A stretch of DNA of 64,000 bases from an uncultured Alphaproteobacteria bacterium (GCA_963832275.1 CAWHTQ010000019.1:2093337-2157336), one strand, 5' to 3'. Numbered from the stretch's first letter, positions 29,856 to 57,019 are shown. The notes: a model not told the origin generated them from the letters alone. A program made the numbers and translations.

Positions 29856-31160
29856 TCAGTCCGGAAGGGGCCGGGGGACGAGGTCGTCGCCCCGCAGGAT
29901 GACCGGTCCGCCGGGCGCGGGACGTGGCGCGAGATCGGGGAGGGGCCGGGGCGCATCGGGCAACTCGAACCCCGGCGCGCCGATCTCGGGCGAGGCGAGC
30001 TCCCCGCCCTCGGCCACGTAGAACGCGATGCCGGCGGCGATGACCGCGGCGAGGACGGCGAAGGCGATCTTGATCCAGCTGTAGGGCCGCTCGCCCGCGA
30101 CCGCGCCGGTCGAACCGTTCACCACGAAGCGGTAGCTCTTGCCGCCGTAACGGTAGGCCGCGATCCAGAGCGGAAGGAGGATGTGCCGGAACGTCTCCTC
30201 CGCGGTCACGGTCCGCGTGCCCGATATCCGCTGCGCGTCCCCGCCGATGTCCCGGCGGATCGCCGACTGGATCGCCGGGACCATCCGCGCCTGCGCCGCG
30301 GCCCAGGCGGCCGGCAGGTCGACGGTATAGGCCTCCGCGCGGAAGCCCGCGATCACCTCGGGGCGGTAGGGCGCGAGGGCGGGCAGGTCCCAGGGCGCCA
30401 CCCCGTCGGTCAGGGCTTCCGGCAGCGAAGCGCTGCCCAGGACCGTCAGGTCGTCGAACGAGACGCGCACCCGCCCGCGCGCGGGGTACCAGTCCATCCG
30501 GGTTCGGGTCTGCATCTCGCCCTTGGCGTTGCGGTAGGTCTCGGTCCGGGCGATGCCGCGCTGGCCCGTGTAGTCGGTCGCGGTCTCGGCGTCGAAGGTC
30601 CAGTGGGGCGCGTAGATGCCCGCCATGCGCCGCCCCGCGCGGGCGTACTTGCGCAGGGCGTTGGGCGCGAACCAGCGGCTGGCGAGCCAGCCCTTCAGCT
30701 TGCCGCGCGCCTCCTCCTCGGGCAGCGCGAAGGGGAGGAGGGCGGCGGGCCGGATGTGCCGGTCGGTCCCCGTGCCGGCGACGACGGGCGTGGCGCAGAA
30801 CGGACATTCCGAGGCCCGGACCGAGGGGTCGAGCTCGAACCGGGCGCCGCAATTGGGGCACTGGCTGACATGGGTCTCCTCGACCATCTCGGGTGGGGCG
30901 CCCGACAGCGCCGCGCGAAGGTCCATCTCCGCCAGGGCGAGGCCGCGCGCGCGCGCGGTGACCGGCGGGAGGACCTGGGCGCTGCCGCAGTGGTCGCACC
31001 GCATCCCGCCGGTGGCCGGATCGAAGCGCATGTCGCTCCCGCAGGCCCGGCATGGGAAGCGGTGCTCCTCCACTCCCGGCATGCGGGGCGCGTCGGGCGG
31101 CATGGCGGCCGCCGGCGCGGCCGGAAGACCCCGCGCGCGGGAGACGCGGGGCAGCTTCAC
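29856..31160 (-). CDS. Zinc-ribbon membrane-anchored protein (YdjG-like partner of SPFH proteins)
   Basis: Two CxxC...CxxC ribbons (CRACGS...CDHCGS and CPNCG...CPFCAT), a large soluble domain, one C-terminal TM helix and a Pro-rich tail. Start is 31160 (ATGA overlap) or 31082. Confidence 0.6.
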   Translation of the reverse strand: MKLPRVSRARGLPAAPAAAMPPDAPRMPGVEEHRFPCRACGSDMRFDPATGGMRCDHCGSAQVLPPVTARARGLALAEMDLRAALSGAPPEMVEETHVSQCPNCGARFELDPSVRASECPFCATPVVAGTGTDRHIRPAALLPFALPEEEARGKLKGWLASRWFAPNALRKYARAGRRMAGIYAPHWTFDAETATDYTGQRGIARTETYRNAKGEMQTRTRMDWYPARGRVRVSFDDLTVLGSASLPEALTDGVAPWDLPALAPYRPEVIAGFRAEAYTVDLPAAWAAAQARMVPAIQSAIRRDIGGDAQRISGTRTVTAEETFRHILLPLWIAAYRYGGKSYRFVVNGSTGAVAGERPYSWIKIAFAVLAAVIAAGIAFYVAEGGELASPEIGAPGFELPDAPRPLPDLAPRPAPGGPVILRGDDLVPRPLPD

Positions 31161-31708
31161 AAGAACCGGTGCAGGGCGCGGGGTGCCATGATCCGCAGGG
31201 CCCGGTCGTTCAGGGCGGTGTGCCGCCAGAGATGGAAGAGGGCATGCGCCCCGACGAGGGCCAGGAGCGCATAGAAGACCGCCCAGTGAACCACGCCCAC
31301 GACCTCGTTCGCCCGGTCGAGCCCCAGGGGCGGCGCGATCGGCACGATGCCCCCGGCCTTCAGCAGCACCGCCGAGGTCAGGCCGAGACCGAAGCCCGTC
31401 AGCGCCAGCACGCCCAGACCGGCGATCAGCGAATGATGCATGATCCGGTGCAGGGCCCGTGCCCAGCCGCGCAGTTTCGGCCCCGGCCGCGAGGCGAGGC
31501 CGCGGCGCATCCAGTCCACCACCCAGAGGAGCGAGAGCGAGGTGAAGATCAGCCCCAGATCGGAATGCAGCGCCACCATCCAGGGCCCCGCCCGCACCGT
31601 ATCCGCCGGGGTGACCACGGCGAACCAGATCAGGAGCGGCAGCATCGACCAGTGCACGACCTTGAGCACGGACCGCCGGTGCGGCAGGTGGCCGGCCAGG
31701 GCGCGCAT
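31157..31708 (-). CDS. Cytochrome b561 family protein
   Basis: 183 aa with 4 TM helices. Conserved His in VVHWSMLP, HSDLG, HHSL and VVHWAV. In-frame ATG at 31708. Confidence 0.75.
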   Translation of the reverse strand: MRALAGHLPHRRSVLKVVHWSMLPLLIWFAVVTPADTVRAGPWMVALHSDLGLIFTSLSLLWVVDWMRRGLASRPGPKLRGWARALHRIMHHSLIAGLGVLALTGFGLGLTSAVLLKAGGIVPIAPPLGLDRANEVVGVVHWAVFYALLALVGAHALFHLWRHTALNDRALRIMAPRALHRFL

Positions 31709-32845
31709 GGCGCGCAGGTCAGGCCGCCGGCGCCGGCGGGGGCGGGGGGGCATGACGGTGAAGAGCTGCGCCAGCTCCATCACGTCCTCGGCGCGTTGCC
31801 AGCCGTCCTGCCCTGCGGTCCAGACGAGGGTGTCGCGCGTCATCTCGCCCTCGCTCGCCATGCGTCCAAGGCGGGCCTTGGAGAAGGGTCCCCGCGTCTC
31901 GCCGGCCTCGGCGATGTGCCAGACATGCTCGACCGGCGGGGGCGGGGGCGGCGCGGCCTGCGCCGGGGAGCCGGCGGGCCGCGGCCCCCAGGGGCCCTGG
32001 GACATCTGGTTGGCCATCGCCATGCCCATGCCCATGCCGAGCCCCGCGCCCATGCCGCCGCCGCCGTTCGGGTTGGCCGCCGCCGCGGTCATCGCCTCGG
32101 CGGCCGAGTACTGGGTGAACTTCCCCAGGTCCCCGGCCATCCCCATCGAGGTGCGCTTGTCCAGCGCGGCCTCCACCGCGGGCGGCATCGAGATGTTCTC
32201 GATGTAGAGCTCGGGCAGGGACAGGCCGTATTCGGCGATCGTCGCGCTGATCGCGCCGGCGACGAGCTTGCCCATGTCTCCGGTGTTCGCCGCCATGTCG
32301 AGGACGGGAATGCCCGATTGCGCGACCGCGCGGGAGAACTCCTGCACGATGATGTTGCGGATCTGGTAGGTGATCTCGGCGGTGGTGAACTCGCCGTCGG
32401 TGCCGACGATCTCGCGCAGGAAGAGGGCGGGGTCCGTCACGCGCACGGCATAGGTGCCGAAGGCGCGGATGCGGACGGGGCCGAACTCCGGGTCGCGCAG
32501 GATGACGGGGTTCTTGGTGCCCCATTTCTGGTTCGTGAAGCGGGTCGTGTCGACGAAGTAGATCTCGGATTTGAACGGGCTGCGGAAGCCGTGGTCCCAG
32601 TGCTGCAGCGTCGTCATGATCGGCATGTTGTTGGTCTCGAGCATGTAGAGACCGGGGGTGAACACGTCTGCGAGCTGTCCCTCGTGGACGAAGACGGCGG
32701 CCTGACCCTCGCGGACCGTGAGCTTGGCGCCGTACTTGATCGCGTGCCCCTGCCGCTCGAAACGCCAGACCATCGTGTCGCGGGCGTCGGACGTCCAGTG
32801 GATGACGTCGATGAACTCGCCCTTGAGGAAGTCGAAGATCGGCAT
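31709..32845 (-). CDS. SPFH/Band-7 (Band_7_1-type) protein with C-terminal DUF4339; no stop codon before cyt b561
   Basis: MPIFDFLKGEFIDVIHWTSD...SPFH core...HVWHIAEAGETRGPFSKARLGRMASEGEMTRDTLVWTAGQDGWQRAEDV (DUF4339/GYF-like). The frame runs through a G7/C7 tract (31744-31750) into cyt b561. With one more C it would end ...TVMPPPPPPAPAA-TGA at 31719-31721. Confidence 0.7.
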
Positions 32846-36367: not shown

Positions 36368-37262
36368 TCAGCTCTCCACTTTCACGCCCTCGCGCCGCAG
36401 GCGGTCGCGCAGCACCTCGAGCTCGATGTCCAGTCCGGTGCGGTCGTCGAGCATCAGCCGCTCGGTCCGCTGGGCGAAGCCCCCCTCCATGTCGTCGAGG
36501 AAGGCGAGGTAGTCGCGTCGTGCATCGGCATCCCCGGCGCGCGCATAATAGGCCGCGAACTTGTCCGTCGCGTCGCGCGCACCGCGCAGGTAGACGCCGA
36601 GATAGCGCCGCGCCTGCGTCAGGTCGCGGGGATCGGCCTCCACCTGGCGGAACAGCTTTCGCGCCGCGCGCCGCGAAGCTGCTCGATCCGGGAGGTCAGG
36701 GCGCGATCGCCCAGAGCGCCGATCCGGGTCGTCATCTCGGTCAGGATCGCCTCGGCGTCGTCCACCATCCGGGCGACCCGATCCGATTGATAGGTGTCGG
36801 CGCCCGTGGGCAGCTTGTCGCGCATGGGATCGATGCCGAAAGCGGCGAGGTGCAGCGCGCCGCCCAGCACGCCGAAGACGATCGCCCCGAGCACCGGCTC
36901 GACCAGGTCGCGCCGAGCGCGGCGAGGGCGAGGGCGGTCGCGGCCGCGCCGAGCATCTTGCGCGGGATCGCCGGGCGGCGGGCGGCGGCGCGGGCGTCGT
37001 ACGCGACTTCCGCCTTGGCGCCTTCGCGGGTCAGCCATGCGGCGAACGCCAGCAGGCCGCCCGCCGCGGCGTGCAGCGCGACGCCCGCGGGGCCGGCGCC
37101 CAGGGCCGGCAGGGCGGCGACCACCGCCAGCGCCATCAGGATCCACAGGCGCGCGGCGAACGGCGCGCGCCGGCGGCCGTCGAACGGCCGTGCCGGGCCG
37201 GCGGCGTCCACCCGCTCGCGCGGCGTCGCCCTCGGGCGCGTCCGGGCTGTGCGCCCCGCCAT
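36368..37262 (-). pseudogene. XpaC-like (5-bromo-4-chloroindolyl phosphate hydrolysis protein family), two frameshifts
   Basis: Two N-terminal TM helices, then a soluble domain ...DTYQSDRVARMVDDAEAILTEMTTRIGALGDRALTSRIEQL... / ...YLGVYLRGARDATDKFAAYYARAGDADARRDYLAFLDDMEGGF... split across three frames. Adjacent to telA, as for xpaC-yaaN in Bacillus. Confidence 0.45.
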
Positions 37263-37431
37263 AGCGCCTGGCCATCAGGCGCCGCCCCAGGCCGCGTAGA
37301 GCACGCAGGCCGCGAGCAGCGCGAAGGCGATCTTGCGTACGGTCGGTCCGGGCACGCGGGCGCCTCCTGCTGCGTTGCGGCGTGGTCTATCTATGCGCCC
37401 CGCGCACCGGCCCCAAGTCCATAACCGCGCC

Positions 37432-42692: not shown

Positions 42693-43548
42693 GATGCGAT
42701 CACATCACGCCGCGCTCGCGCCCGCCCTGATCGCGAGGCCTGCTGGCCGCCTGCGCCGGCCCAGCGCCCACGCCGGGCGCCTTCGGGGGCTCGCCCTCGA
42801 CGCCGGCCCCCTTCGGCAACGAAAGCGTGTTCACCGGCTCGGGCGTCGGCCTCGACACGCCCGCCGCCCGCGCCCGCCGTGACGCCGAGCTGCGCGGGAC
42901 CGCGGTGCCCGGCGACATCTTCGCGCCCGGCGCGGTCCGGTCGCAGGCGCTGCCCCCGGGGGGGGCGCCGCCGCCCGCGACGGGCGCGCAGCCGCTCCCG
43001 GGCGGCGGACTCGACCCCGGGGTCGTCGCGGCCGTCGAGGGCGCGGTGAACCCCGGCGAGGCCCCGTTCGGCGGGCAGGTGCGAGGCGGCGCCTCGACCT
43101 TCCCGCCGGCGTCGGGGCAGGGGGCGTTCGGTGCGCCGGCACCGGCGCCGGCCAACGCGCCCGGCATCTCGGACGAGCAGGACTTCTCCGCCGTCTCGGG
43201 GCGGCAGACCATCGAATCGGATGCGGCCCGCATCGCCCGCAACCGCGCCGACTACGTCCAGATCCAGCCCGAGGCCCTGCCGGAGCGGCCCGCCGCCTCC
43301 GGTCCGAACGTCGCGGCCTACGCGGTCTCGACCACCAACGCGGTCGGCGAGGCGGTCCACCGCCGCGGCGGCATCTTCGCCAGCTCGCGCTTCGAGCGGG
43401 CCTGCGCCGGTACCGCTCGCCCGACGCGGCGCAAGCCGCCTTCCTCGAGCGGGGCGGGCCGGAGCGTGACCGGCTCGGCATCGACCCAGACGGCGACGGC
43501 TTCGCCTGCGGCTGGGACCCGGCCCCCTTCCGCCGCGCGGCCGGTTGA
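42693..43548 (+). pseudogene. Lipoprotein with Pro/Gly/Ala-rich linker and C-terminal Excalibur Ca-binding domain, two frameshifts
   Basis: ATG with GGAGG RBS. MRSHHAALAPALIA, then (after an inserted a at ~42735) GLLAACAGPAPTPG lipobox, a low-complexity region, and after a second shift (~43398) ...IDPDGDGFACGWDP, the Excalibur DxDxDGxxCE motif. Confidence 0.5.
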
Positions 43549-44219
43549 CGCCCGGACGAACGGGACCGGTCTCGCCCAATCACGGGCCGCGGCGCGGCGG
43601 CGGGCCGGTGGACATGGTCGTCCTGCATTACACGGCGATGTCCGACGCGCCCGCCGCGCTGGCGCGGCTCTGCGATCCGGCGTTCGAGGTCTCGGCCCAC
43701 TGGCTCGTGGACCGGGACGGTCGGCGCACGTCCCTCGTGCCGGAGGACCGCCGTGCCTGGCATGCGGGCGCGGGGCGATGGGGCGACGTCCTCGACGTGA
43801 ATTCCCGGTCCGTCGGGATCGAGCTGGACAACGACGGCGCCGCCCCGTTTCCCGAGGCGCAGATCGACGCCCTGATCGCCTTGCTGCGCGGGGTCCTGAC
43901 GCGCGCATCCGGCGATCCGTCCGGAGCGCGTGCTGGCCCATTCCGACGTGGCGCCCGTCGCGCAAGGTCGATCCGGGCCCGTTGTTCCCCTGGCGCTACC
44001 TGGCCGAGGAGGGCCTGTCGGTATGGCCGGACGCGCCCGGCTCCGGCGCGGCGCTTGGAGGCCAGCCTCACGCGAATCGGCTACGATCCAGACGCGCCCG
44101 CCGCCGATCGGTTGAGGGCGTTCCGCCTGCGGTTCCGCCCCGGCGCGGCCGGCGGCCCGGACGCCGAGGACGCGGCCCGGGCGGCCACGATCGCCGCGCG
44201 CTGGCCCTGCGGCGCTTGA
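43545..44219 (+). pseudogene. ampD: N-acetylmuramoyl-L-alanine amidase (anhydro-MurNAc-peptide amidase-like), three indels within ~150 nt
   Basis: VSPNHGPRRGGGPVDMVVLHYTAM...AHWLVDRDG...RAWHAGAG...SVGIELDN, then ...HSDVAPVA / RKVDPGPLFPW / ...EASLTRIGYDPD in three frames. Inferred events are an inserted g (~43902), a 2-nt deletion in a gcgcgc run (~43955) and an inserted t (~44050). Confidence 0.6.
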
Positions 44220-44239
44220 CCGGCCCCGCGGGGGCGCCT

Positions 44240-44618
44240 ACCGGCGGCCTCGCGCGGATGGCTGGATGACCGCGGCCCGCACGGGTCGAGGAAAGTCCGG
44301 ACTCCATGGAAAGGACGGTGCCGGGTAACGCCCGGCCGGCGAGAGCCGAGGGAAAGCGCCACAGAGAAGAGACCGCCCGCATCCGTGCGGGCAAGGGTGA
44401 AACGGTGGGGTAAGGGCCCACCGCGGACCGGGCGACCGGGACGGCATGGCAAGCCCCACCGGGAGCAACGCCGAATAGGGACCCCGAATCGGCGCTTCCG
44501 GCCGGGGGTCCGGGTTGGCGGCTCGACCGCCCCGGCGACGGGTGCGGCAGATGAATGGTCATCCAGGGCGCTTCGGCGCCCGGACAGAATCCGGCTTACA
44601 GGCCGTCCGCGCGCCATT
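44240..44618 (+). ncRNA. rnpB: RNase P RNA, bacterial type A
   Basis: GAGGAAAGTCCGGACTCC (P4 5' strand), GGTAACGCCCGGC, GGGAAAGCGCCACAGAGAAGAGACCGCC, GGGCAAGGGTGAAACGGTGGGGTAAGGGCCCACC, AGGGA and ACAGAATCCGGCTTAC (P4 3' strand). 5'/3' ends can pair (P1). Boundaries are +/-10 nt. Confidence 0.85.
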
Positions 44619-44695
44619 TCTGTCCCTTCGTTTAAGGTCTCGTTAAACGTCCAGTGGCGTTAGTCGTTGCGAACGGTGACAGCTGGAGGCGCCTC

Positions 44696-45137
44696 ATGAC
44701 CACGACGACACGGCCCGTCCCGCGCGGGATGGCGCCCGCCGCGCCGCCGCAGTTCTCGCTCGCCTTCCTGCGCCGCAGCACCGACGTCGTGCAGCTCCTT
44801 GACGCCCGGGGGCCGAGTGACCTTCACCAACGCCAGGCCGCGCGGCTCGGACGGCGTGGCCACCGGGCCGCGCCCCATATGGGGCGTCGAGCTCTGGGAG
44901 TTCTGGCCGAGCGAGGCGAGGAGCCAGGTGCGCGACGCCGTCGCCCGCGCCGCGCGCGGCCAGTGCGTCCGGTTCCGCGCCGACGCTGCTCGACCCGTCG
45001 GAGGTCATGCGCGAACATGACGTCATGATCACCCCGATCGAGGGGCCCGAGGACGCGCCGACCGCCTTGATGGCGGTCTCACGCGCGGTCGGGCCCGAGG
45101 CACCCGTCCGAGCCGGCCGATCCCGGGGTCGCCGACC
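44696..45137 (+). pseudogene. Hypothetical small protein, possibly PAS-like, split over three frames
   Basis: ATG with GGAGG RBS. Protein-like segments MTTTTRPVPRGMAPAAPPQFSLAFLRRSTDVVQLLDARG / RVTFTNA...WGVELWEFWPSEARSQVRDAVARAARGQCVRFRADAA / [36 protein letters not shown] in successive frames. The family assignment is weak. Confidence 0.3.
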
Positions 45138-45248
45138 TCGGGGTTGACCGCCCGGCCGCTGCGCGTAGAAGGCGCGGACGCGGCCCGTGCGCGCGGCCCC
45201 GGCCGCGCGCGCGCCGCACCTCATCCTAGCCGCAGGAGCCTCCGAGCC

Positions 45249-45416
45249 ATGGCGAAGCCGACGACCATCAAGATCCGCCTGAACTCGACCGCGGGCACCG
45301 GCCATTTCTACGTGACCAAGAAGAACGCCCGCACGATGACCGAGAAGTTCTCGATCCGGAAGTTCGATCCGGTCGCCCGCAAGCATGTCGAGTACAAGGA
45401 AGGCAAGATCAAGTGA
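45249..45416 (+). CDS. rpmG: 50S ribosomal protein L33
   Basis: [55 protein letters not shown], 55 aa. Confidence 0.9.
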
Positions 45417-45505
45417 TCCGCCGGGGCGCGCGCGCGCCCCGCGCTGATCCAGCCTGCCGACCTGCCGCGTCTGAATCCGGTCCCTCCATCGCGGCGTGGG
45501 TCGCC

Positions 45506-46017
45506 ATGACCGACGTCGTGACGATCCGGACGGCCACGCCGCGCGACCTCGCGGCGGTCGATCTGCTGCTCTCGCGCAGCTATCCGCGTCTGCTCGCCGC
45601 CGACTACCCCCCGTCCATCGCTCGTGATGGCCGTGCCGCTGCATCGCGCGCGCGAACCCCGCGCTCCTTCGCTCCGGGACCTATCTCGTGGCGGAGAGCC
45701 CGAACGGCGCCATCGTCGCGGCGGGGGGGTGGACCCGCACGGCCGCCGGGGCCGACGCGGGCATGGCCGATACGGGACATGTCCGCCATCTCGCGACGGA
45801 TCCGGATCACCTGCGCCGGGGTTTCGCCGCCGCCATCCTGTCCCGCGTCATGATCGAGGCGCGCGGCGCGGGTCATGCGCCGTCTGGCGTGCCTCTCCAC
45901 GTTCACGGCCGTCCCGTTCTACACCGCACAGGGCTTCGGGAGGGTCGAGGCGGTGACGATCCCGCTCCGGCGCGGCATCGCGTTCCCCGCCGTCTCGATG
46001 CTAAGGGAGCTGCGCTA
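45506..46017 (+). pseudogene. GNAT-family N-acetyltransferase, two frameshifts
   Basis: MTDVVTIRTATPRDLAAVDLLLSRSYPRLL..., then ...TYLVAESPNGAIVAAGGWTR...RHLATDPDHLRRGFAAAILSRV..., then ...RRLACLSTFTAVPFYTAQGFGRVEAV... in three frames. Confidence 0.5.
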
Positions 46018-46082
46018 GGGCCGGACGCGAGAAGGGCCGGCACGAGGCCGGCCCTTCGGGATCGTCAGATGCCGCGCCGCGG

Positions 46083-46856
46083 TCACTCGCGGTTGCCGAA
46101 GAGCTGCAGCAGGAACATGAACATGTTGATGAAGTTCAGGTACAGCGACAGCGCGCCCATGATCGCGGCCTTGCCGAGCCATTCCTGATCGCCATGCGCG
46201 GCATGCGCGACGTACTCGGTCTTGATGCGCTGCGTGTCGTAGGCGGTGAGGCCCGCGAAGATCAGCACGCCGAGGATCGAGATCGCGAACACCATCGCCG
46301 GCGATTGCAGGAAGATGTTGACGACCATCGCGACCACGAGGCCGATCACGCCCATGATGAGGAACGTGCCCATCGCGGAGAGGTCGCGTCTTCGTCGTGT
46401 AGCCGTAGAGCGAGAGGCCGGCGAAGGCGATCGAGGTGATGAGGAAGATCTGCGCGATCGACGTGCCGGTGAACACGAGGAAGATCGAGCTGATCGACAG
46501 GCCCATCGTCGCGGCGAAGGCGTAGAACGACCAGCTGCGCCGTGGCGGCCGACATCTTGTTGATCATCGCCGACATGCCGAACACGAAGGCCAGCGGGGC
46601 CAGCATCACGACCCAGCGCAGCGGCGAGGTGTAGAGCGCGCACGCCGAGATCGGTCAGGTAGCGGTCGGCGCCGATCTGCGCGGCCGTCGGCACGGTCGT
46701 GACCGCGAGGCCGGCGATCGCCCACGCCGCGGCGAAGGTGATCAGCATGCCCACGGACATCGTGCCGTAGACCTTGTTCATGTGGGCGCGAAGGCCCGTG
46801 TCGATCGCGGCGGTGCGTGTGCCCGCACCAGCGCGGATCGCCTGATAGTCAGCCAT
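46083..46856 (-). pseudogene. Bax-inhibitor-1/YccA-family membrane protein, three frameshifts
   Basis: MADYQAIRAG...MNKVYGTMSVGMLITFAAAWAIAG / ALYTSPLRWVVMLAPLAFVFGMSAMINKMSAATAQ / SFYAFAATMGLSISSIFLVF...GYTTKT / RDLSAMGTFLIMG...LLQLFGNRE. Each junction fits a single-base insertion. Confidence 0.6.
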
Positions 46857-46987
46857 TCATGACCTCCATTCGAAGCGGAACCGCCCGGCCGCCACCACGG
46901 CATCCGGGTCTCCTGGCACGAATATCGGGCCGCGGGACGCGCCTTTCAAGAGAGCAACCGGCGAGCCGGGCGCCCTTTTTCGTGGCC

Positions 46988-47198
46988 TTAGCGGCGGTGC
47001 GGCGACAGGTCCCAGAACGGGCGCGCCGCCTCGCGATCGGCTTGGGCGCGGGTCAGGCCGAGATCGCCGAGCGCGGCGTCGTTCAGCCGCGCGAGGGCGG
47101 CGCGCTCGGCCGCGTGCGCGGGCCATCAGGGACAGCGCGGAGAGCGCGGAGCGCCCGGCGGCGTGGCGATGGGCGCGGGAGAGGGCGGGAGCGAACAT
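46988..47198 (-). pseudogene. DUF1127-domain small protein, one frameshift
   Basis: MFAPALSRAHRHAAGRSALSALSLMA, then in the other frame AHAAERAALARLNDAALGDLGLTRAQADREAARPFW, the DUF1127 L-x-DIGL-x-R...PFW motif. Divergent from a LysR gene, a common arrangement. Confidence 0.5.
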
Positions 47199-47223
47199 GA
47201 TCGGGTCCTTCGGTTCATGATGG

Positions 47224-47262
47224 GTGTTGATCATCTGGGCGCCGATTGCGATATTCATCAAA
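47224..47262 (+). promoter_or_regulatory. Candidate LysR-type operator in the DUF1127/LysR divergent intergenic region
   Basis: TTGCGAT-N23-ATCGCAA perfect 7-bp inverted repeat (ttgcgatattcatcaaacgactaattcgcatcgcaa) within the only AT-rich stretch of the 100-nt spacer. Confidence 0.3.
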
Positions 47263-47298
47263 CGACTAATTCGCATCGCAACCATCAGGTCCTGTGAT

Positions 47299-48179
47299 AT
47301 GTCCCGAACCCTCGACCCGTCCGCCCTGCGCGCCCTCGTCGCCATCGCCGATGCCGGCGGCGTCACGCGGGCCGCGGCCGCCCTGCACCGGACGCAAAGC
47401 GCGGTCTCGATGCAGATCAAACGGTTGGAGGACGCTCTGGGCGCTCGGCTGCTGGATCGCGGCGGGCGCGGGGTCACCCTGACGCCCGCGGGCGAGCAGC
47501 TCCTCGGGTATGCGCGGCGCATCCTCGCCCTCAACGACGAGGCGTGGGACCGCCTGACGCATGAGGCCTACGAGGGGGAGATCACGCTCGGGGTGCCGCA
47601 CGACGTCGTGCAGCCGGCGATCCCCGGCGTGCTGCGCCGCTTCGCCGGGCGATTCCCGCGCATGGAGCTGCGCCTGATCACCGGCAACACGGCCGAGCTG
47701 CGCGTGCGTCATGCCCGCGGCGCGATGGACGTGATCGTCACGACCGAGCGGGCCGTCGGTCCGGGCGGGGAGGTGCTGGCCCGCCACGCCCTGCGCTGGA
47801 CCGGCGCGCCCGGCGGGCGGGCGCATCGCGAGCGGCCCCTGCCCATCGCCTTCGAACGGGACTGCATCTTCCGGCCCGACGTGACGGCGCGGCTGGCCGC
47901 CGCCGGGATCGCCTGGCGCATGGTGACCGATACGAGCAGCTTGCGGACCGTCGAGGCGGTGGTCTGCGCCGATCTGGCGGTGCACGCGGTGCTCGAGGGG
48001 ACGACGATGGGCGGCATGGCGCCGCTGGGCGCGGAGGCCGGGCTGCCGGCGCTGGAGGATTGGTGCATCGGCCTGTACCTCCCGGCGGCGCCGGCGCTCC
48101 GGCGGCGGCGCTCGGTGCCCTGTTGCGCGAGGGCTACGGCGGGGCCGCGATCGTGCCGGCGGCCGTCCAGGCCGCGTGA
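47299..48179 (+). pseudogene. LysR-family transcriptional regulator, frameshift near the 3' end
   Basis: HTH MSRTLDPSALRALVAIADAGGVTRAAAALHRTQSAVSMQIKRLE, then a LysR substrate-binding domain. After ...GLYLPAAPA the natural C-terminus (PAAALGALLREGYGGAAIVPAAVQAA-stop at 48179) is in another frame. Confidence 0.7.
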
Positions 48180-48412
48180 TCGGCTGGGGATCGCCGATCG
48201 GATGGCTCGCGCGGAGGGGGTGTCGGCGGGGACGCGCACAATTCTAATTATCTCGGCCGAGATGCGTTCCAGCACTTGGCGTGTAGCGCGACTGCGCTTA
48301 TCCAGGGGACAGGTCACCGCGATCGAGGAGGCGGATGGCACGTGGCAGCATGCCGGGTGTCGAACGCCGGTCGTATATACTAGTTTGCAGCAATGCTCCC
48401 GGAGGACGTTTC

Positions 48413-48778
48413 ATGAGCGACAGGCACCGTGTCGACATCCATGTCGGCAAGCGCGTGCGGCAGCGCCGCTGGATGATCGGGATGACGCAGCAGCAGCTGG
48501 CCGACCTGGTGGGCATCAAGTTCCAGCAGATCCAGAAGTACGAGACCGGCGCCAACCGTGTCAGCGCCTCGCGGCTCTACGACATCGCCGAGGCGATGGA
48601 CGCGCCGGTCGCCTTCTTCTTCGAGGGGGTGGACGCGCGCCGGGCGCCGACGGGCGGCATCGTCGGGGACCTGCTCGCCGACAAGGAGGCGCTGGCGCTG
48701 GTGCGGTCCTACTACGCGATCCCCGAGAACCAGAGGCGGCAGCTCTTCGAGCTCGCGCGCGTGCTGTCGGCGGCGTGA
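48413..48778 (+). CDS. XRE-family HTH transcriptional regulator
   Basis: MSDRHRVDIHVGKRVRQRRWMIGMTQQQLADLVGIKFQQIQKYETGANRVSASRLYDIAEAM (Cro/C1 HTH). GGAGGA RBS. Preceded by a ~230-nt AT-richer leader. Confidence 0.8.
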   Translation: MSDRHRVDIHVGKRVRQRRWMIGMTQQQLADLVGIKFQQIQKYETGANRVSASRLYDIAEAMDAPVAFFFEGVDARRAPTGGIVGDLLADKEALALVRSYYAIPENQRRQLFELARVLSAA

Positions 48779-49573
48779 CCGCGCCGGATATCGACGAACT
48801 TCAACGGGTTGCGGACGCGCTGGCGGATGCGGCGGCGGCGCAGACGCTGCCGCGATTCCGGCGGCCGATGGCGGCTGAGGACAAGGGCGGGCCGGGCGGC
48901 GGCTTCGATCCGGTGACCGAGGCGGACCGCGCCGCGGAGGCGGCGATGCGGGCCGTGCTCGCGCGGCTGCGGCCCGATGACGGCATCCTGGGCGAGGAGG
49001 AGGGGCGCGGTGCGCGGGACCTCCGGCCTGACCTGGGTGCTCGATCCGATCGACGGGACGCGGGCGTACCTCGCGGGGGCGCCGACCTGGGGCACGCTCA
49101 TCGCCTGCGGGCCGGATGGCGGCGCGCCGATCCTGGGGATCGTCGACCAGCCGTATATCGGGGAGCGGTTCGCGGGCGGGCCGGACGGTGCCACCGATCA
49201 CGCGAGGAACGGACCGTAAGATACTGCGAACGCGGGAGGTCCGCGGGCTGGATGAGGCGATCCTGCTTCGACCTTTCCGGAGGTGGGCACGCCGCAGGAG
49301 GCGGCGGCCTTCGGGCGGGTGGCGGCGCGGGCGCGGCTCACGCGCTACGGGCTTGACTGCTACGGCTACGCGCTGGTCGCGGGCGGCCATGCGGACCTGG
49401 TGATCGAGGCGGGACTGGCGCCCTACGACATCCAGGGGCCGATGGCGGTGGTTCGCGCGGCCGGCGGGATCGTGACCGACTGGGAGGGCGGGCGCGCCGA
49501 ATGCGGGTGGGCGGATCGTCGCCGCCGGATGCGCGGCGGTCCATGCGGCGGCCGTCACGCGGCTGCGTGGTGA
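48775..49573 (+). pseudogene. Inositol-monophosphatase-family protein (HisN-like histidinol-phosphatase), at least 4 frameshifts
   Basis: GTG overlapping the XRE stop (GTGA). ...FDPVTEADRAAEAAMRAVL...GEEEG / LTWVLDPIDGTRAYLAG...WGTLIA / ITRGTDRKILRTREVRGLDEAILL / STFPEVGTPQEAAAFGRVAA...YGYALVAGGHADLVIEAGLAPYDIQGPMAVV in successive frames. Confidence 0.55.
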
Positions 49574-49577
49574 CTGA

Positions 49578-49690
49578 CCGGCGCGGCCGCGTGCACATGA
49601 GGTGGCGTGACGCCCTTTCCGTTCGTCGATGCCGATGCACATTCCATGCACAACCCATGCACCGGCCATGCGCATCGGGTGCGCCGGGGC
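49578..49690. repeat. Intergenic element with tandem CCATGCAC(A)-type units (copy 2)
   Basis: ggcgcggccgcgtgcacatgagg...gatgcacattccatgcacaacccatgcaccggccatgcgcatcgggtgcgcc, between convergent gene ends. Shares GGCGCGGCCG and CCATGCACAACCCATGCAC with the reverse complement of copy 1. Confidence 0.5.
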
Positions 49691-49759
49691 CCCTGGGGCG
49701 GGCCGCAGGCCCGCGGCGCCGGCGGAGCGGCCCGGCAGGGTCGGCGACGACGGCGCCCC

Positions 49760-51050
49760 CTAGCCCGATGCGCGCCGCCCCATGACGTAGACCGCCCGCA
49801 CGGCGCGGTCGTCGCCCATCATGATGGTGGGGAACAGCGCCTCCCAGGCGTCGTCCGCCCGCGCGGCGCGCTGCGCGATGGCGGGGGTGGAGGCGAGGTC
49901 GAGCACGGTCAGATCCGCCTCCAGCCCCGGGGCGATGCGGCCGATCCGGTGCGCCCAGCGCAGGGCGTCGGCGCCGGCGGCGGTGGCGAGCCAGAGGAGC
50001 TGCGCGGGGTGCAGGGCGGTGCCGGCGAGCTGTCCGAGCTCGTAGGCCGCGGCCATGGTGCGGAGCATCGAGAAGGAGGAGCCGCCGCCCGTGTCGGTGG
50101 CGAGCGCGACGGCGGATCCCGTCGGCGCCGCCGGCCCGCGACGTCCAGCACGCCCGAGCCGATGAAGGTGTTCGAGGTCGGGCAGTGGACGATGGCGGCG
50201 CCGCTCCCGGCCAGGCGGGCGCGCTCGCGAGCGGTGAGGTGGATCGCGTGGCCGAAGAGGGCGCCGGGGCCGACCAGGCCGTGCGCCTCGTAGGTGGCGA
50301 GGTAGTCGGGCGCCTCGGGGTGGAGCCGGGCGACCCAGGCGAGCTCGTCGGTCTGCTCGGAGAGGTGCGTCTGCATCGGGCAGGTCGGGGTTGGCGGCCC
50401 AGAGGGCGCCCAGCGACCGCGAGCTGCTCGGGGGTGGAGGTGGGGGTGAAGCGGGGGGTGATCGCGTAGCTCGCCCGGCCGCGCCCGTGCCAGCGCGCGA
50501 TCAGGGCGGCGCTCTCGTCATGGGCGCGGGCGGGCGTGTCGAGGAGGTCGGCGCGGGCGTTCCGGTCCATGCAGGTCTTGCCCGCGACGACGCGCATCCC
50601 GCGCGCGGCGGCGGCCTCGAAGATGGCGTCCACCGAGGCGGGGTGGGAGGTGCAGAACGTGCAGACGGTGGTGGTGCCGTTGCGCCAGCAGGAGGTCGAG
50701 ATAGGTCTCCGCGACCGGCGGCCGCATGGGCGGGATCGCCGAAGCGGGCCTCCTCGGGGAAGGTGTAGCGCTCCAGCCAGTCGATCAGGCGGGCGCCCCA
50801 GGAGGCGACGATGCCCGGTCTGCGGGTAGTGGGCGTGCGCGTCGATCAGGCCGGGCAGGATGAGGGCGGCGCCGTGATCCTCGACCGGGACGGCGGGGTG
50901 GGCGGCGCGCAGGTCGGCCAGCGTGCCGAGCGCGCGGACGTGCCCGTCCGCGATCAGGACGGCGCCGGAGGCGATGGTCATCGCCTCCTCGGGCGGGACG
51001 AGGAACGGATCGGCATGGGTGCGCAGCACCTGTCCGGCGAGGATGAGCAT
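49760..51050 (-). pseudogene. guaD: Guanine deaminase (amidohydrolase), at least 5 frameshifts
   Basis: MLILAGQVLRTHADPFLVPPEEAMTIASGAVLIADG...ILPGLIDAHAHYPQTG / IVASWGARLIDWLERYTFPEEARF / VAETYLDLLL / NGTTTVCTFCTSHPASVDAIF... / ...CPTSNTFIGSG... / C-terminal ...AVYVMGRR. Assembled from at least 5 frame segments. Confidence 0.6.
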
Positions 51051-51191
51051 GGGCGGGGCTCCGAGCGGGGCGTGCGGTCGGTCGGTGGAGGCGGGCGTAG
51101 CGCGGCGCGGCTCGCCCCCGCAAGGCGCGCTTGCGGGGGCGCCGCGGGCACCTATGGTGCCGCGATCGTCGCCGCGACCGGAGGGACGACC

Positions 51192-52572
51192 ATGGCCGAC
51201 ACCGTGGAGGAGACGCGCCCCGCCGAGGTGGAGGACCGGGCGCCCGTCGACATGGGCGCGCTGCGCGAGGCCGCCGGGCGGGGCGACGCGGAGGCGGTGC
51301 AGGCGATCCTGCTGCCGCTGCACCCGGCCGACATCGCCGACGCGCTCGAGCAGATGGGCGAGGCGGACCGCGACCGCATCCTGCCGCTGATGGGGCCGGA
51401 GCTGTCCGGCGAGATGCTGACCGAGGTCGAGGAGGGCCTGCGCGAGGAGATCATCGAGGCGCCTGCCCGATTCGGTGGTGGCGGAGGCGGCGCGCGACCT
51501 GGAGACGGACGACGTCGTCGACCTGATCGAGGACCTCAACCAGGAGACGCGCGAGGTCGTGCTGGGCGCGCTCGACGCCGAGGACCGGATCGCGGTCGAG
51601 GCGGCGCTGAGCTATCCCGAGGACAGCGCCGGGCGCCTGATGCAGCGCGAGGTCACGGCGGTGCCGGAGCATTGGGACCGTGGGCGAGACGATCGACTGG
51701 CTGCGCGCGCATGACGACCTGCCGGAGCAGTTCTACCACATGATCCTGGTCGATCCGGGGATGCGGGCGACGGGCTACGTGACGCTCGGGCGGCTCCTCG
51801 GCTCGCCGCGGGCGACGGCGCTGGACGCGCTGCGCGAGGAGAGCTTCCGCACGATCCCGGTGGGCGCAGGACGTCGAGGAGGTCGCCTACGCGTTCAACC
51901 AGTACCACCTGATCAGCGCGCCGGTGGTGGACGAGGGCGGCCGGGTGATCGGGGTGATCACGATCGACGACGCGATGGCGGTCCTGTCGGACGAGCACGA
52001 GGAGGACCTGCTGCTGCTGGCCGGGGTGGGGGACGAGAGCCTGAACGACCGGACGCTGGCGATCGCGCGGCAGCGGTTCCCGTGGCTGGCGGTGAACCTG
52101 GTGACGGCGATCCTGGCGTCCCTGGTGATCGCGCAGTTCGAGGGGGTGATCGCGGCGGTGACGGCGCTCGCGGTGCTGATGCCGATCGTGGCGAGCATGG
52201 GCGGCAACGCGGGCACGCAGTCGATGACCGTCGCGGTGCGGGCGCTGGCGACCCGCGACCTGACGCGGGCCAACGCGCTCAGGGTGCTGCGGCGGGAGGT
52301 GGTGGCGGGCCTGATCAACGGGGTCGGCGTTCGCGGTGATCATCGGGATCGTGGGGGTGATCTGGTTCGGCTCGCCGCAGCTGGGAATGGTGATCGGGGC
52401 GGCGATGGTGATCAACCTGGCGGTGGCGGGGTTCGCGGGGCTGCTGATCCCGCTGGGGCTGGAGAAGGTCGGGATCGACCCGGCGCTGGCCTCGGGGGCG
52501 TTCGTGACGACGGTGACGGACGTGGTGGGGTTCTTCGCCTTTCTCGGGCTGGCGGCGTGGGTCCTGATCTGA
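51192..52572 (+). pseudogene. mgtE: Magnesium transporter MgtE, four +1 frame switches
   Basis: N-terminal domain, two CBS domains and the TM domain ...MPIVASMGGNAGTQS... are present in order but in frames 0, 1, 2, 0, 1 (start coordinate mod 3). GGAGGGA RBS at the ATG. Confidence 0.65.
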
Positions 52573-53125
52573 AGGCCCGCCTGCGGGCGGAGGCCCTGGC
52601 GCGCCGGGGGGAGGTCCATTCCGCCGGAGCGGTCGGCGGCGGCCTGCGCGGTGCTGGCGGCGGCGCTGGGGCCGGGGGCGGGGCGGGTGCTGGCGGGATA
52701 CGTGCCGATGCGCTCGGAGGTGGACGCCTGCCGGTCGATGGCGGGGTGGGACGGGCCGGTCTGCGTGCCGGTGGTGGTGGGCGCGCGGGCGGGCGCTGGC
52801 GTTCCGGCGCGTGGTCGCCGGGGGCGGCGATGGTGCCGGGAGGCTACGGCACGATGGTGCCGCGAGCGGGCGGAGGAGCTGCGGCCCGAGGTGGTGATCG
52901 TGCCGCTGGTGGCGTTCACGGCGGGTGGCGACCGGCTCGGCTATGGCGGGGGGTTCTACGACCGGACGCTGGCGGGGCTCGCGGCGGAGGCGGTCGGGCC
53001 TGGCCTATGCGGCGCAGCGCGTGGCGGCGATGCCGGTGGAGGCGACGGACGTGGCGCTGGGCGCGGTGGCCACGGAGGAGGGGCTCTGGCGGGGCGGGGG
53101 GCTTGTGCCGGCGGCGCCGGCCTGA
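52557..53125 (+). pseudogene. 5-formyltetrahydrofolate cyclo-ligase, several frameshifts
   Basis: GTG, then GPDLKARLRAEALARRGEV...VLAGYVPMRSEVD...PEVVIVPLVAFTAGGDRLGYGGGFYDRTLAGL...GLAYAAQRVAAMPVEATDVALGAVATEEGL split across three frames. Confidence 0.5.
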
Positions 53126-53134
53126 TTCACCCGG

Positions 53135-53851
53135 ATGATGGACCGAAGGCAGAACACCGGCGCGCTGCGCTTCTCGCTCAAGGGCGCGGGGCTGGAGGCG
53201 ATGCCGTCGGGCGCGCTCCTCTGGCCGGCCGAGGGCATGCTCGTGGTCTCGGACCTGCATCTGGGCAAGTCGGAGCGGATGGCGCGGCGGGGCGGCGCGT
53301 TCCTGCCGCCCTACGAGACGCGCGAGACGCTGGCGCGGCTGGCCGCCGACCTGGAGGCGACGGGGGCGGGCACCGTGCTGTGCCTCGGCGACAGCTTCGA
53401 CGACCTGGAGGCGGCGGAGAACCTGGGCGGGCCGGAGGTCATGGCGCTGGGCGCCCTGATGGCCGGGCGGCGCTGGATCTGGGTCGAGGGGAACCACGAT
53501 CCGGGGCCGCTGCCGTTCGGGGGGGAGGCGGCGGCGGAGGTGCTGGCCGGGCCGCTCGCGTTCCGGCACGTCGCGGCGCCGGGCCCGGCGCGGGGGCCGG
53601 GCGAGGTCTCGGGGCACTGGCATCCGAAGATCGCGGTGGCGGGCGTCTCGCGGCCCTGCTTCCTGATCGACGCGGGGCGCGCGATCCTGCCGGCCTATGG
53701 CGCCTATACGGGCGGGCTGCGGGCGGCGCATCCCGAGCTCGACGGGCGCATGGCCGCGGGGGCGATCGCGGTCCTGACGGCGCCGGGCGGCGGGCGGGCG
53801 GTGGCGGTGCCGCTGCGCGCCGCCGCGCCGCGCCGCCGGCGCGCGGGATGA
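53135..53851 (+). CDS. pdeM: Ligase-associated DNA-damage-response metallophosphoesterase (PdeM/MPE-like)
   Basis: ALLWPAEGMLVVSDLHLGKSERMARRGGAFLPPYETRETLARL...LCLGDSFDD...WVEGNHD, the calcineurin-like motifs in the PdeM arrangement. Appears intact. Confidence 0.7.
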   Translation: MMDRRQNTGALRFSLKGAGLEAMPSGALLWPAEGMLVVSDLHLGKSERMARRGGAFLPPYETRETLARLAADLEATGAGTVLCLGDSFDDLEAAENLGGPEVMALGALMAGRRWIWVEGNHDPGPLPFGGEAAAEVLAGPLAFRHVAAPGPARGPGEVSGHWHPKIAVAGVSRPCFLIDAGRAILPAYGAYTGGLRAAHPELDGRMAAGAIAVLTAPGGGRAVAVPLRAAAPRRRRAG

Positions 53852-54267
53852 GCGCGCCGGATCCGCGCGTCCCCGAGGCGGCGATCCGGGCGAGCTTCGC
53901 CGCGCAGGGGATGATGCGGACGCTGGGCGCGCGGATGGTGACGGTGGGCGGCGGCGCCTGCACGATCGAGGCGCCGATCCGGGCGGAGACGGGGCAGCAG
54001 CACGGCTACGCCCATGCCGGGCTCGCCTTCGCGATCGGGGACAGCGCCGCGGGATATGCCGCGCTCTCGGCGATGGCGGACGGGTCCGAGGTCCTGACGG
54101 TGGAGATGAAGATCAACCTGCTGGCGCCGGCGGCGGGGGAGCGCCTGGTCGCGGCGGGGCGGGTGGTGCGGGCGGGGCGCCGGATCGTGGTGGTGGCGGC
54201 GGAGGTGGTCGCGGAGCCCTCGGGCAAGGCGGTCGCGATCCTGCAGGGGACGATGGTGCCGGCCTAG
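53848..54267 (+). CDS. PaaI/hotdog-fold thioesterase
   Basis: 139 aa ...QQHGYAHAGLAFAIGDSAAGYAA...GRVVRAGRRIVVVAAEV. ATGA overlap with pdeM. Confidence 0.75.
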   Translation: MSAPDPRVPEAAIRASFAAQGMMRTLGARMVTVGGGACTIEAPIRAETGQQHGYAHAGLAFAIGDSAAGYAALSAMADGSEVLTVEMKINLLAPAAGERLVAAGRVVRAGRRIVVVAAEVVAEPSGKAVAILQGTMVPA

Positions 54268-54327
54268 GCGGGAACCCCCGGGGCCGGCCGGCGTTTCCAT
54301 GCGACACACACCAAGAGGAGATCCGAC

Positions 54328-54495
54328 ATGGCGAACCACGATCAGACCGAAGGCAAGGCCAAGGACATCGGCGGCAAGATCAAGGAAGAGGCCGGCGATC
54401 TCACGGGCAACGACAAGATGAAGCACGAAGGCCAGGCCGATCAGGTCGAGGGCAAGGTGCAGAAGGGCGTCGGCGACATGAAGGACAAGAGCTAG
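54328..54495 (+). CDS. CsbD-family general stress protein (55 aa, below the ORF-track cutoff)
   Basis: MANHDQTEGKAKDIGGKIKEEAGDLTGNDKMKHEGQADQVEGKVQKGVGDMKDKS. AAGAGGAG RBS 7 nt upstream. Locally lower GC. Confidence 0.8.
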   Translation: MANHDQTEGKAKDIGGKIKEEAGDLTGNDKMKHEGQADQVEGKVQKGVGDMKDKS

Positions 54496-54612
54496 GCCGC
54501 TTCGCGCCTGCGATTGGATCGGGAATGGAGGGGCTGGCTCGCGCCGGCCCCTTCTTCTGTCTGCCGGCATCCTGACGGCGGATGGACGCGCGTGCCGGAT
54601 GGCGGTCCTGCG

Positions 54613-55152
54613 TCACCATATGTCGGCCCTGTCCAACGCGGGAACGCAGGTCGGTCGTCCGGGTAGGCGGGGCATCGGCGCGTCGGTCAGGGATCGCCCG
54701 ATCCATCCGTGGGGCAGGCTGAGCGGCCGGGGCGCGCGCGCAGGTCGCTCGGTGATCGGCACGAACCCGGCCCGGCCGTAGTAGCCCGGATCGCCGTATG
54801 TGATCGCGATCTCCACCCCTTCGGTGCGCAGAACCGCGAGGGCGTGCGCCAAGATGGCCAGTCCGATCCCGCGCCGCTGGCGCTCGGGCGCCACCGCCAT
54901 GGGCGAGAGCAGGACCACGCTGCGCGGATCGTCCGGATAGCTCAGGCGCGTGAAGACGGCCGCGCCGAGCAGGCGACCGCCGTCCTCGGCGCGGAACACG
55001 CGGATGTCGGCCGGCGGCGTCCGCTCGAGGAGGTCGCGGACGAGGCTGCCGATCAGCGCGCCCTCGTCCGGCCCCTCCGAGGCGGCGAACGCCCGGGCGA
55101 ACAGGTCCTCGATCGCCCGCTCGCGTCCCTCGTATCCGGTCGGCAGTTCCAC
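54613..55152 (-). CDS. GNAT-family N-acetyltransferase
   Basis: ...VFTRLSYPDD...LLSPMAVAPERQRRGIGLAIL...ITYGDPGYYGRAGF (acetyl-CoA-binding R/Q-x-x-G-x-G/A). Start uncertain: GTG 55152, or the ORF-track ATG at 55245 with an Arg/Pro-rich leader. Confidence 0.6.
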   Translation of the reverse strand: MELPTGYEGRERAIEDLFARAFAASEGPDEGALIGSLVRDLLERTPPADIRVFRAEDGGRLLGAAVFTRLSYPDDPRSVVLLSPMAVAPERQRRGIGLAILAHALAVLRTEGVEIAITYGDPGYYGRAGFVPITERPARAPRPLSLPHGWIGRSLTDAPMPRLPGRPTCVPALDRADIW

Positions 55153-55241
55153 GCGCGGTCCCCTCGCCGTCGATTCGAGCCTCGCCGGTGCCGGCGGCGA
55201 TGCGGCGCGCGGTGCTCCTGGCCGGACGGGCCGGCGGCCGT

Positions 55242-57019
55242 TCAAAGCGGCCAGATCAGGGGGATGAGGGCGGAGACGATGATCGCCTGGGTGATGTTGA
55301 GGGGGATGCCGACGCGGAGGTAGTCGGCGAACTTGTAGCCGCCGGGGCCGAAGACGAGCATGTTCGTCTGGTAGCCGATCGGGGTCGCGAAGCAGGCGGA
55401 GGCAGCGATCATCACGGTGACGACGAGGGGGCGGGGGTCCACGCCCAGGGACTCCGCGAGGCCGATGGCGATCGGGGTCATCACCACGGCGACGGCGTTG
55501 TTGGACACCATCTCGGTCAGGGTGGTCGTCAGGAGGTAGACCGCCGCGACCAGGAGGACGGGGGCAGCGTTCCCAGGAACGGCGCGACCGCGTCGGCGAT
55601 CAGGGCGACGGCGCCGGTATGCTCGAGCCCCGCGCCGATCACGAGCATCGCCAGGATGAGGACGAGGAGGCGCCCGTCTATGGCGCCGAACGCCTCGTCG
55701 GCCTCGATGCAGCGGGTGAGGAGGACGAAGGCGACCGCGAGGATCGCCAGGAGCAGGATCGGCGCGACCTCGAGGGCCGAGAGGACGACGATGAAGGCGA
55801 GGGCGGCGACGGCGATGGGCCAGCGGCTGCGCTTGAACGCGCGGGCCGAGGGATGCGCCACGTCGACGAGGCCCATGTCGCTGGCCAGGCGGGCGATGTC
55901 CTCGGGGGCGCCCTCGAGGAGGAGCGTGTCGCCGACGCGCACGACGATGTCGTCGAGCTGCCGGCCGATGTTCTCGGCCCGGCGGTGGACGGCGAGCGGA
56001 TAGACGCCGTAGCGGCGGCGCAGGCGCAGGGAGCCGAGGCTCCGCCCGATCATGCCGGCGCCGGGGGTGATGAGCACCTCGACGGTGGAGGTCTGGACCG
56101 AGGAGAGCCGGTCGACGGCGCGGACCTTGGGGTTCTCGCGCAGGCCGAGGACCTCGGCCATCTCGGTTCGCAGGACGACGCGGTCGCCGATGGCGAGCTC
56201 GACCTCGGCGAGGTTGCGGCGCAGGGACGCGTCGCCGCGCAGCACGTCGACGACGCGGATGCCGTCCCGGCGGAAGAGGTCGGCTTCGAGCACGGGCTGT
56301 CCGGCGAGGTCGGAGCCTTCGGGGATGGCCACCTCGGTGAAGAACTTCATCCGGGAGCGCCCGGTGAGGAGGGCGGCCATGCTCTGCCGCTCGGGCAGGA
56401 GGCGGGGCGCGATCACGCCGACGTAGAACATGCCCCAGGCGACGACGGCGAGGCCGATGGGGGTGATCTCGAAGATGGAGAAGGGCTCGAGCCCGCGGGC
56501 GCGCGCGACGCCGTCCACCAGGAGGTTGGTGGAGGTGCCGATCAGCGTGAGCGTGCCGCCCATGATGGCGGCGTAGCTGAGCGGGATCAGCAGCTTGGAG
56601 GGCGCGCGGCCGAGCTTCTCGGCGAGCTGGACGAAGACGGGGAGCATCACCAGCACGACCGGCGTGTTGTTGACGAAGGCCGAGGCGATCACGACGAATC
56701 CCAGGAGGCCGGCGAGGGCGAGGCGGGGGCGGGTCTCGGCCCGGCGCTCGGCGATGCGGGTGAACCAGCCCAGCGCGCCGGTGCGCACGAGCGCGCCCAT
56801 GACGACGAACATGGCCGCGATGGTCCAGGGCGCGGGGTTGGACAGGACGGCGAGCCCGGTGTCGTAGGGCACGAGGCCGACCGCCAGCATGACCGCCGCG
56901 CCGGCGAGGGCGGTGACGTCGGGGGGGAAGGTCTCGCGCACGAAGAGGACGAACATGACGCCGACGACGGCCATGGCGGCGAACGCCTCGGCGGTGGGGG
57001 AGAGCCCGAGATCGATCAC
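55242..57019 (-). pseudogene. SLC13/DASS-family permease with two internal TrkA-C (RCK_C) domains, one frameshift
   Basis: GTG start VIDLGLSPTAEAFAAMAVVG..., two RCK_C domains (...DLAGQPVLEADLFRRDGIRVVDV... and ...GRSLGSLRLRRRYGVYPLAVHR...). The last ~90 codons (...MVSNNAVAVVMTPIAIGLAESLGVDPRP...IPLIWPL) are in another frame, with the shift near 55530. Confidence 0.7.

Follow-up and report, generated by a model that had tools for sequence, protein, structure and literature searches.

In Bacillus subtilis, the soluble SPFH protein YdjI (SamI) is recruited by the membrane proteins YdjG and YdjH (PMC8581546; bioRxiv 10.64898/2026.02.06.704340). Judged by analogy, the product of the pspA-ydjGHI operon is the closest studied counterpart of the SPFH protein encoded in the operon described here. 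YdjI presumably belongs to the same Pfam family, PF13421. Contingency loci with poly-G or poly-C tracts are found in Neisseria, Haemophilus, and Campylobacter, and long-read or insufficiently polished assemblies are known to contain indels that split or merge genes.

The window, a 64,000-nt stretch of DNA from an uncultured alphaproteobacterium (GCA_963832275.1, CAWHTQ010000019.1:2093337-2157336), encodes on its minus strand a protein in which an SPFH domain, a GYF_2 domain, and a cytochrome b561 domain appear to be joined. Its features are as follows.

31157..32845, minus strand: continuous 562-aa open reading frame (ORF), an apparent SPFH-GYF-b561 fusion, identical to the database protein P0391, which is the window's own record
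32141..32770, minus strand: SPFH domain (Band_7_1, PF13421), residues 26 to 235 (Pfam, E = 7.5e-100)
31772..31921, minus strand: GYF_2 domain (PF14237), residues 309 to 358 (Pfam, E = 8e-19)
31722..31753, minus strand: stretch of 32 nt that begins with the conserved Met365 codon and extends up to the ancestral stop, expected to encode the conserved poly-Pro tail
31744..31750, minus strand: run of seven C (C7; G7 on the plus strand), where a length error is most likely; the real run is probably C8, or C5
31719..31721, minus strand: ancestral SPFH stop codon TGA, kept in the assembly 1 nt out of frame, with flanks that align with those of the related locus L002
31709..31718, minus strand: 10-nt intergenic spacer from the SPFH stop to the b561 start, equal in length in L002
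31157..31708, minus strand: cytochrome b561-family gene (PF01292), 183 aa, with four hydrophobic segments and invariant His residues, a separate gene in relatives
29856..31160, minus strand: 434-aa double zinc-ribbon protein that has a hydrophobic segment at its C-terminal end; it starts at a GTG that shares bases with the stop of b561 (GTGA)

The ORF is observed directly in the deposited sequence. It runs from the ATG at 32845 to the TGA at 31159-31157 with no internal stop codon and encodes three Pfam domains: Band_7_1 (333 bits; gathering cut-off, 24), GYF_2 (67.6 bits; cut-off, 25.8), and Ni_hydr_CYTB (PF01292, prokaryotic cytochrome b561) at residues 392 to 554 (38.3 bits; cut-off, 30.1). 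The C7 run lies immediately 3' of the Met365 codon (ATG, 31753-31751). The assembled junction reads ...AQLFTVM-PPRPRRRRRPDLRA-MRALAGHLPHRR..., and its tail, PPRPRRRRRP, has no stop; the peptide across the junction in the fused reading is ...FTVMPPRPRRRRRPDLRAMRALAGH..., with PPRPRRRRRPDLRAMR as the junction peptide. Addition of a single C yields ...FTVMPPPPPPAPAA, followed by the TGA at 31721-31719, 10 nt upstream of the b561 ATG at 31708. Repair of the run to C8 results in a 375-aa protein ending in MPPPPPPAPAA and repair to C5 in one of 374 aa, the common form of the end being MPPPPP(P)APAA, and any 1-nt insertion between the Met365 ATG and the TGA gives a 375-aa protein. The length of the stretch from 31722 to 31753 equals 2 modulo 3, so the frame is lost somewhere within it. 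The repaired product fits the orthologs, which are 363 to 388 aa long and have the C terminus P5-9-xx; an orthologue-like tail and stop are absent until 1 nt is repaired.

The sequence-only reading had described an SPFH ORF that lacks a stop and continues in frame through the C7 run into an ATG-initiated b561 gene with four transmembrane helices and conserved His, and it had noted that one added C restores a TGA 10 nt before the b561 ATG. The b561 part has four hydrophobic segments, and eight of its His residues (His19, 48, 87, 91, 141, 155, 159, and 163) are invariant among 13 orthologs. Since the ORF, the domains, the position of the C7 run, and the one-C repair are all reproduced, this description is accurate. 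The term "translationally fused," however, applies to the deposited sequence only.

Comparison with relatives covers 81 loci from a genome scan or protein look-up and 2 metagenomic loci (83 in all), plus one more, L085, making 84. The two-gene state is observed directly in these relatives: the SPFH gene ends at 363 to 388 aa in all 84, and none of them reads through. A b561 homolog is found downstream in 25 of the 83 loci (26 of 84 with L085, where an extra 129-aa ORF lies between the SPFH and b561 genes), always as a separate ORF; in the 25 loci, its frame relative to the SPFH gene varies and its distance ranges from 3 to about 1470 nt. Gene order in the window matches that of its closest complete relatives, L001 and L002: a GT4 gene on the opposite strand is followed by genes for an SPFH protein of 374 aa, a b561 protein of 186 or 183 aa, and a Zn-ribbon protein of 434 aa. 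The junction in L002, GCGGCC TGA tccgcgcgcc GTG CGC GCC, corresponds to GCGGCC TGA cctgcgcgcc ATG CGC GCC in the window. The stop, spacer, and start align base for base with those of L002; all three are thus intact, and only the frame is off by 1 nt. In a nucleotide alignment with L002, the poly-Pro stretch shows a net difference of +8 nt (9 minus 1), the sole uncompensated indel in five genes. Metagenomes scanned with the b561 protein yield only two distant loci, with 61 to 62% identity, and the genes are separate in both.

Protein database searches give the same picture. Among 5.8 billion proteins, the best 120 matches to the 562-aa product are SPFH plus GYF_2 proteins of 365 to 382 aa that cover 65 to 66% of the query; a fused homolog would rank highest. 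In a HMMER scan that covered all of 1.84 billion cluster representatives, the best-matched stretch never extends past query residue 388 among the matches listed (best 150). The linker PPRPRRRRRPDLRA is present in no homolog from either protein search. The 90%-identity cluster includes 10 SPFH members of 371 to 375 aa, which have the poly-Pro tail and are 93 to 95% identical to the protein of the window; its only 562-aa member is P0391, identical to the product of the window and encoded on one 2.45-Mb contig. Thus, across the 84 loci, the best 120 and best 150 matches, and the 90% cluster, no fused homolog is found other than the window's own record. A search of a contig index for exact-sequence matches to the fusion, the b561, Zn-ribbon, and GT4 proteins, and P0391 found none. 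No conspecific assembly was found, the closest cluster members being the ones that are 93 to 95% identical in protein. Six longer SPFH matches, including both of those with at least 500 aa, were considered as candidate b561 fusions and rejected, as Pfam assigns them TerD, DUF6273, a second GYF_2, or GT2 instead; the extra domain is TerD in P0244 (661 aa) and DUF6273 in P0383 (565 aa).

The poly-Pro tail is a regular feature of this family. In the 83 loci, the orthologs end in FT[VI][ML], a Pro run (P5-9), and two more residues, followed by the stop, and the run includes at least 5 prolines in 81 of the 83. The tail codons of the relatives are a mixture of CCG, CCC, and CCA, and the longest C or G run in the tail is at most 6 in 81 of 83 loci, all of them in frame. 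From the mixed codons and the short runs it follows that a long C tract is not conserved. The refuting condition set by the sequence-only reading, orthologs that keep two genes with a stop, comes out clearly in favor of a length error: the genes are apart in all 26 loci that have b561.

The junction is not the only place where the assembly loses frame. A frame tracker based on GC3 was used to flag frame changes on the same strand that lack a stop-then-start boundary, and the pieces were joined and scanned against Pfam. In seven other genes, single Pfam domains directly cross frame changes.

About 2074: frame change in Flavodoxin_2 (joined-piece Pfam scan)
About 3805: frame change in FAD_binding_4, with a second at about 3303 seen by the GC3 frame tracker only
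About 36659: frame change in Halogen_Hydrol (joined-piece Pfam scan)
About 50117: frame change in Amidohydro_1 (joined-piece Pfam scan)
About 52995: frame change in 5-FTHF cyclo-ligase (joined-piece Pfam scan)
About 55563: frame change in CitMHS (joined-piece Pfam scan)
Within mgtE: frame changes in MgtE_N and MgtE (joined-piece Pfam scan)

A further frame change is listed at about 36911. The mgtE gene has four frame changes and uses all three frames, and the joined MgtE can be aligned along its full length (100%) with intact orthologs of 458 to 459 aa, with up to 93% identity. The relative genome that contains L002 also includes L084, a 21-kb stretch that is syntenic with the window from 42.0 to 58.3 kb and in which all genes are intact. 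Nucleotide alignment of the window with L084 reveals, between 42.7 and 55.6 kb, about 40 frameshifting events that are not compensated. The isolated events include 23 +1 insertions and 4 -1 deletions. A homopolymer-specific error model was considered for them but mostly does not fit, as 16 of the 23 isolated insertions add a base that lengthens no run. Outside this error-dense block, there is about one frameshift per 8 kb of the window, which by our own estimate is roughly ten or more times the real rate in free-living bacteria. These frameshifts point to consensus errors, unlike the lesions of real pseudogenes: the insertion bias is strong, GC3 periodicity is kept, other lesions are absent, and pseudogene decay in bacteria is deletion-biased.

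The apparent fusion is very probably an indel artefact of the assembly or its consensus rather than a real protein or a regulatory switch, and we infer that the error sits in the assembly and not in the DNA of the organism. The artefact would consist of a net deficit of 1 nt in the poly-Pro coding stretch, most simply a C7 recorded in place of a genomic C8 (or a C5 with two spurious bases). Such a deficit would shift the SPFH stop away from the reading frame and, by chance, bring the b561 gene into it, which would explain the read-through. Of the two possibilities raised by the sequence-only reading, a length error and a slip-strand switch, the former agrees with the lack of any fused locus, the preserved ancestral signals, and the dozens of other frameshifts. 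Two observations run against the artefact: the dominant error of this assembly is a random +1 insertion outside homopolymers, the net change here being -1, and the 9 kb around the locus contains no other uncompensated frameshift. The clean 9 kb, the uninterrupted ORF, and the fact that homopolymers are also hotspots for real mutation speak for a real C7 that arose in the organism by a recent slip from C8. A unique 562-aa SPFH-GYF-b561 protein would then anchor a soluble SPFH scaffold to the membrane through a redox protein, and the tract might be reversible. The Arg-rich linker and the basic N terminus of b561 would fit a cytoplasmic junction; by the positive-inside rule, the basic N terminus is predicted to be cytoplasmic, which would make the fusion topologically possible. 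A real fusion of this kind would suggest that an SPFH scaffold and a membrane cytochrome are physically linked. Nevertheless, such a mutation would destroy a poly-Pro tail that almost every ortholog has kept, no search finds a fused homolog, and frameshifts outside the error-dense block are far commoner than real ones are estimated to be, so that we consider a genuine fusion improbable.

The slip-strand alternative has the C tract, as a site of tract-length variation or of -1 ribosomal or transcriptional slippage, toggling between separate and fused products. On sequence grounds, C7 would allow perfect re-pairing of tRNA-Pro after a -1 slip, and changes in length would switch states, as the run sets the frame of the coding sequence and C8 or C5 gives two genes. 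Yet runs of at least 7 G or C are no commoner in the window (72.8% GC) than its composition predicts, 13 being seen against 11.7 to 13.3 expected in order-2 and order-3 Markov simulations; the long tract is not conserved in relatives; and the 12 protein-cluster members include no length variants other than whole codons. A switch is accordingly very hard to credit. A selected domain fusion of the Rosetta-stone type, which would report a functional link between SPFH and b561, might be suggested by the adjacency of the two genes in 26 of 84 loci and by the other C-terminal fusions, to TerD and DUF6273, that a Pfam scan of the longer homologs reveals in the same SPFH family. It is contradicted by the absence of fusion in all 84 relatives and by the junction itself, where tail, stop, spacer, and start are simply read out of frame. 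None of the signals between the two genes, from the SPFH stop across the spacer to the b561 start, has been lost or remodeled, and in this untouched state they bear no mark of selection for a fusion. Sequence comparison refutes an evolved fusion to the extent that the data allow, and we give it next to no credence.

Given the likely error in the length of the C run and the dozens of other frameshifts, the locus is almost certainly an ordinary three-gene operon on the minus strand, with separate genes for an SPFH-GYF_2 protein of about 375 aa, a b561 protein of 183 aa, and the Zn-ribbon protein. The SPFH gene has a conserved partner in the Zn-ribbon gene, which lies within the flanking sequence retrieved for 79 of 83 loci; the other neighbors in the window are the GT4 gene on the opposite strand and a PfkB kinase gene. 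The 562-aa protein is already present in public protein collections and has drawn an unrelated 183-aa b561 protein into the SPFH 90% cluster. An assembly indel can therefore create spurious domain architectures and contaminate clustering, and the assembly of this window needs polishing before gene-level inference.

In its one-base homopolymer discrepancy that merges adjacent genes, the locus resembles the indel artefacts of long-read or poorly polished assemblies, and the resemblance extends to the roughly 40 other frameshifts, which interrupt genes found whole in the relative. It differs in that the other errors are mostly +1 and outside homopolymers, whereas the fusion site is net -1 within a C run. 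With the contingency loci of Neisseria and its like, it shares a coding homopolymer whose length sets the frame. In contrast to those loci, the tract is neither over-represented nor conserved, and a 73% GC genome yields such runs by composition.

The b561 protein is similar to prokaryotic cytochromes b561 of the Escherichia coli CybB type in its Pfam score above the gathering threshold, its four hydrophobic segments, and its invariant His residues. The match is modest (38 bits), however, heme binding and function are putative, and the version found in relatives is always a separate protein of 183 to 186 aa. A PDB sequence search with the product gives a sole match, the GYF domain of Myxococcus xanthus GltJ/AgmX (PDB 7z3c; NCBIfam NF033761), to which the GYF_2 part (residues 305 to 371) is similar with an E value of 1.2e-4. 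No other region of the product has a relative whose structure has been solved, and nothing beyond the small GYF domain is common to the two proteins, the score being 22.9 bits against a GltJ family cut-off of 450.

The operon differs from that of YdjI in several respects. The SPFH protein ends in GYF_2 and a poly-Pro tail, whereas YdjI ends in a zinc finger; there is an accessory b561 gene; and neither the ORFs of the window nor the genes tabulated for L001 and L085 include pspA. A possible likeness lies in the encoding of an anchorless SPFH protein, with no membrane anchor detected in the SPFH-GYF_2 protein, beside genes for putative membrane-protein partners. In addition, YdjG starts with Cys-x2-Cys, judging from a primer sequence, as does the Zn-ribbon protein.

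Three other minus-strand genes in the window are frameshifted, and in each of them a Pfam domain crosses at least one of the junctions.

Within 1635-4216, minus strand: Flavodoxin_2 / NAD(P)H dehydrogenase-like gene, with a frameshift near 2074; the Pfam domain crosses the 2074 junction.
Within 1635-4216, minus strand: FAD-binding oxidase gene, in three frames, with breaks near 3805 and 3303; the Pfam domain crosses the 3805 junction.
36370-37341, minus strand: Halogen_Hydrol (XpaC-like) gene; two frame changes, near 36911 and 36659, spread the reading over three frames, and the 36659 change lies within the Pfam domain.

In the alignment with L002, a close complete relative, the Halogen_Hydrol gene shows one inserted nucleotide at 36669 and another at 36678. 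A dense cluster of such lesions is found at 42700-55600, where alignment against the syntenic stretch of the same relative's genome (L084) reveals approximately 40 uncompensated frameshifting indels, chiefly single-base insertions located outside homopolymers. In this block, mgtE is broken four times, and the genes for the amidohydrolase, inositol monophosphatase, Bax1-I, GNAT, and 5-FTHF cyclo-ligase proteins, among others, are also disrupted, whereas the flanking regions contain far fewer frameshifts. The same block includes a full-length RNase P RNA of the bacterial class A type (44254-44614, plus strand; 265.9 bits). An ARAGORN scan of the 64-kb window for tRNA genes was negative.

The 562-aa fused product of the window is present in the public protein collection (P0391), where it has drawn P0398, a b561 protein of 183 aa, into the 90%-identity cluster of SPFH proteins (the cluster of P0001). 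This is a concrete example of an assembly error that leads to contaminated protein clustering.

The b561 gene itself (31157-31708) is an accessory insert that separates the SPFH gene from its conserved partner, the double zinc-ribbon gene; of the 84 related loci examined, just 26 carry it. One of the related loci (L085) carries an extra 129-aa open reading frame between the SPFH and b561 genes.

Among 83 related loci, every SPFH+GYF_2 orthologue has the conserved C-terminal tail FT[VI][ML]-PPPPP(P...)-xx, located immediately after the GYF_2 domain; its counterpart in the window is at 31722-31753. Because GYF domains bind proline-rich ligands, this poly-Pro tail is a candidate built-in ligand or partner ligand. 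Genuine C-terminal fusions of the same SPFH family are found elsewhere, in the 661-aa protein P0244, which has the SPFH-GYF_2-GYF_2-TerD domain architecture, and in the 565-aa protein P0383, which combines SPFH, SHOCT, and DUF6273 domains in that order. The fusions with TerD and DUF6273 may point to stress-related partners of this SPFH family.
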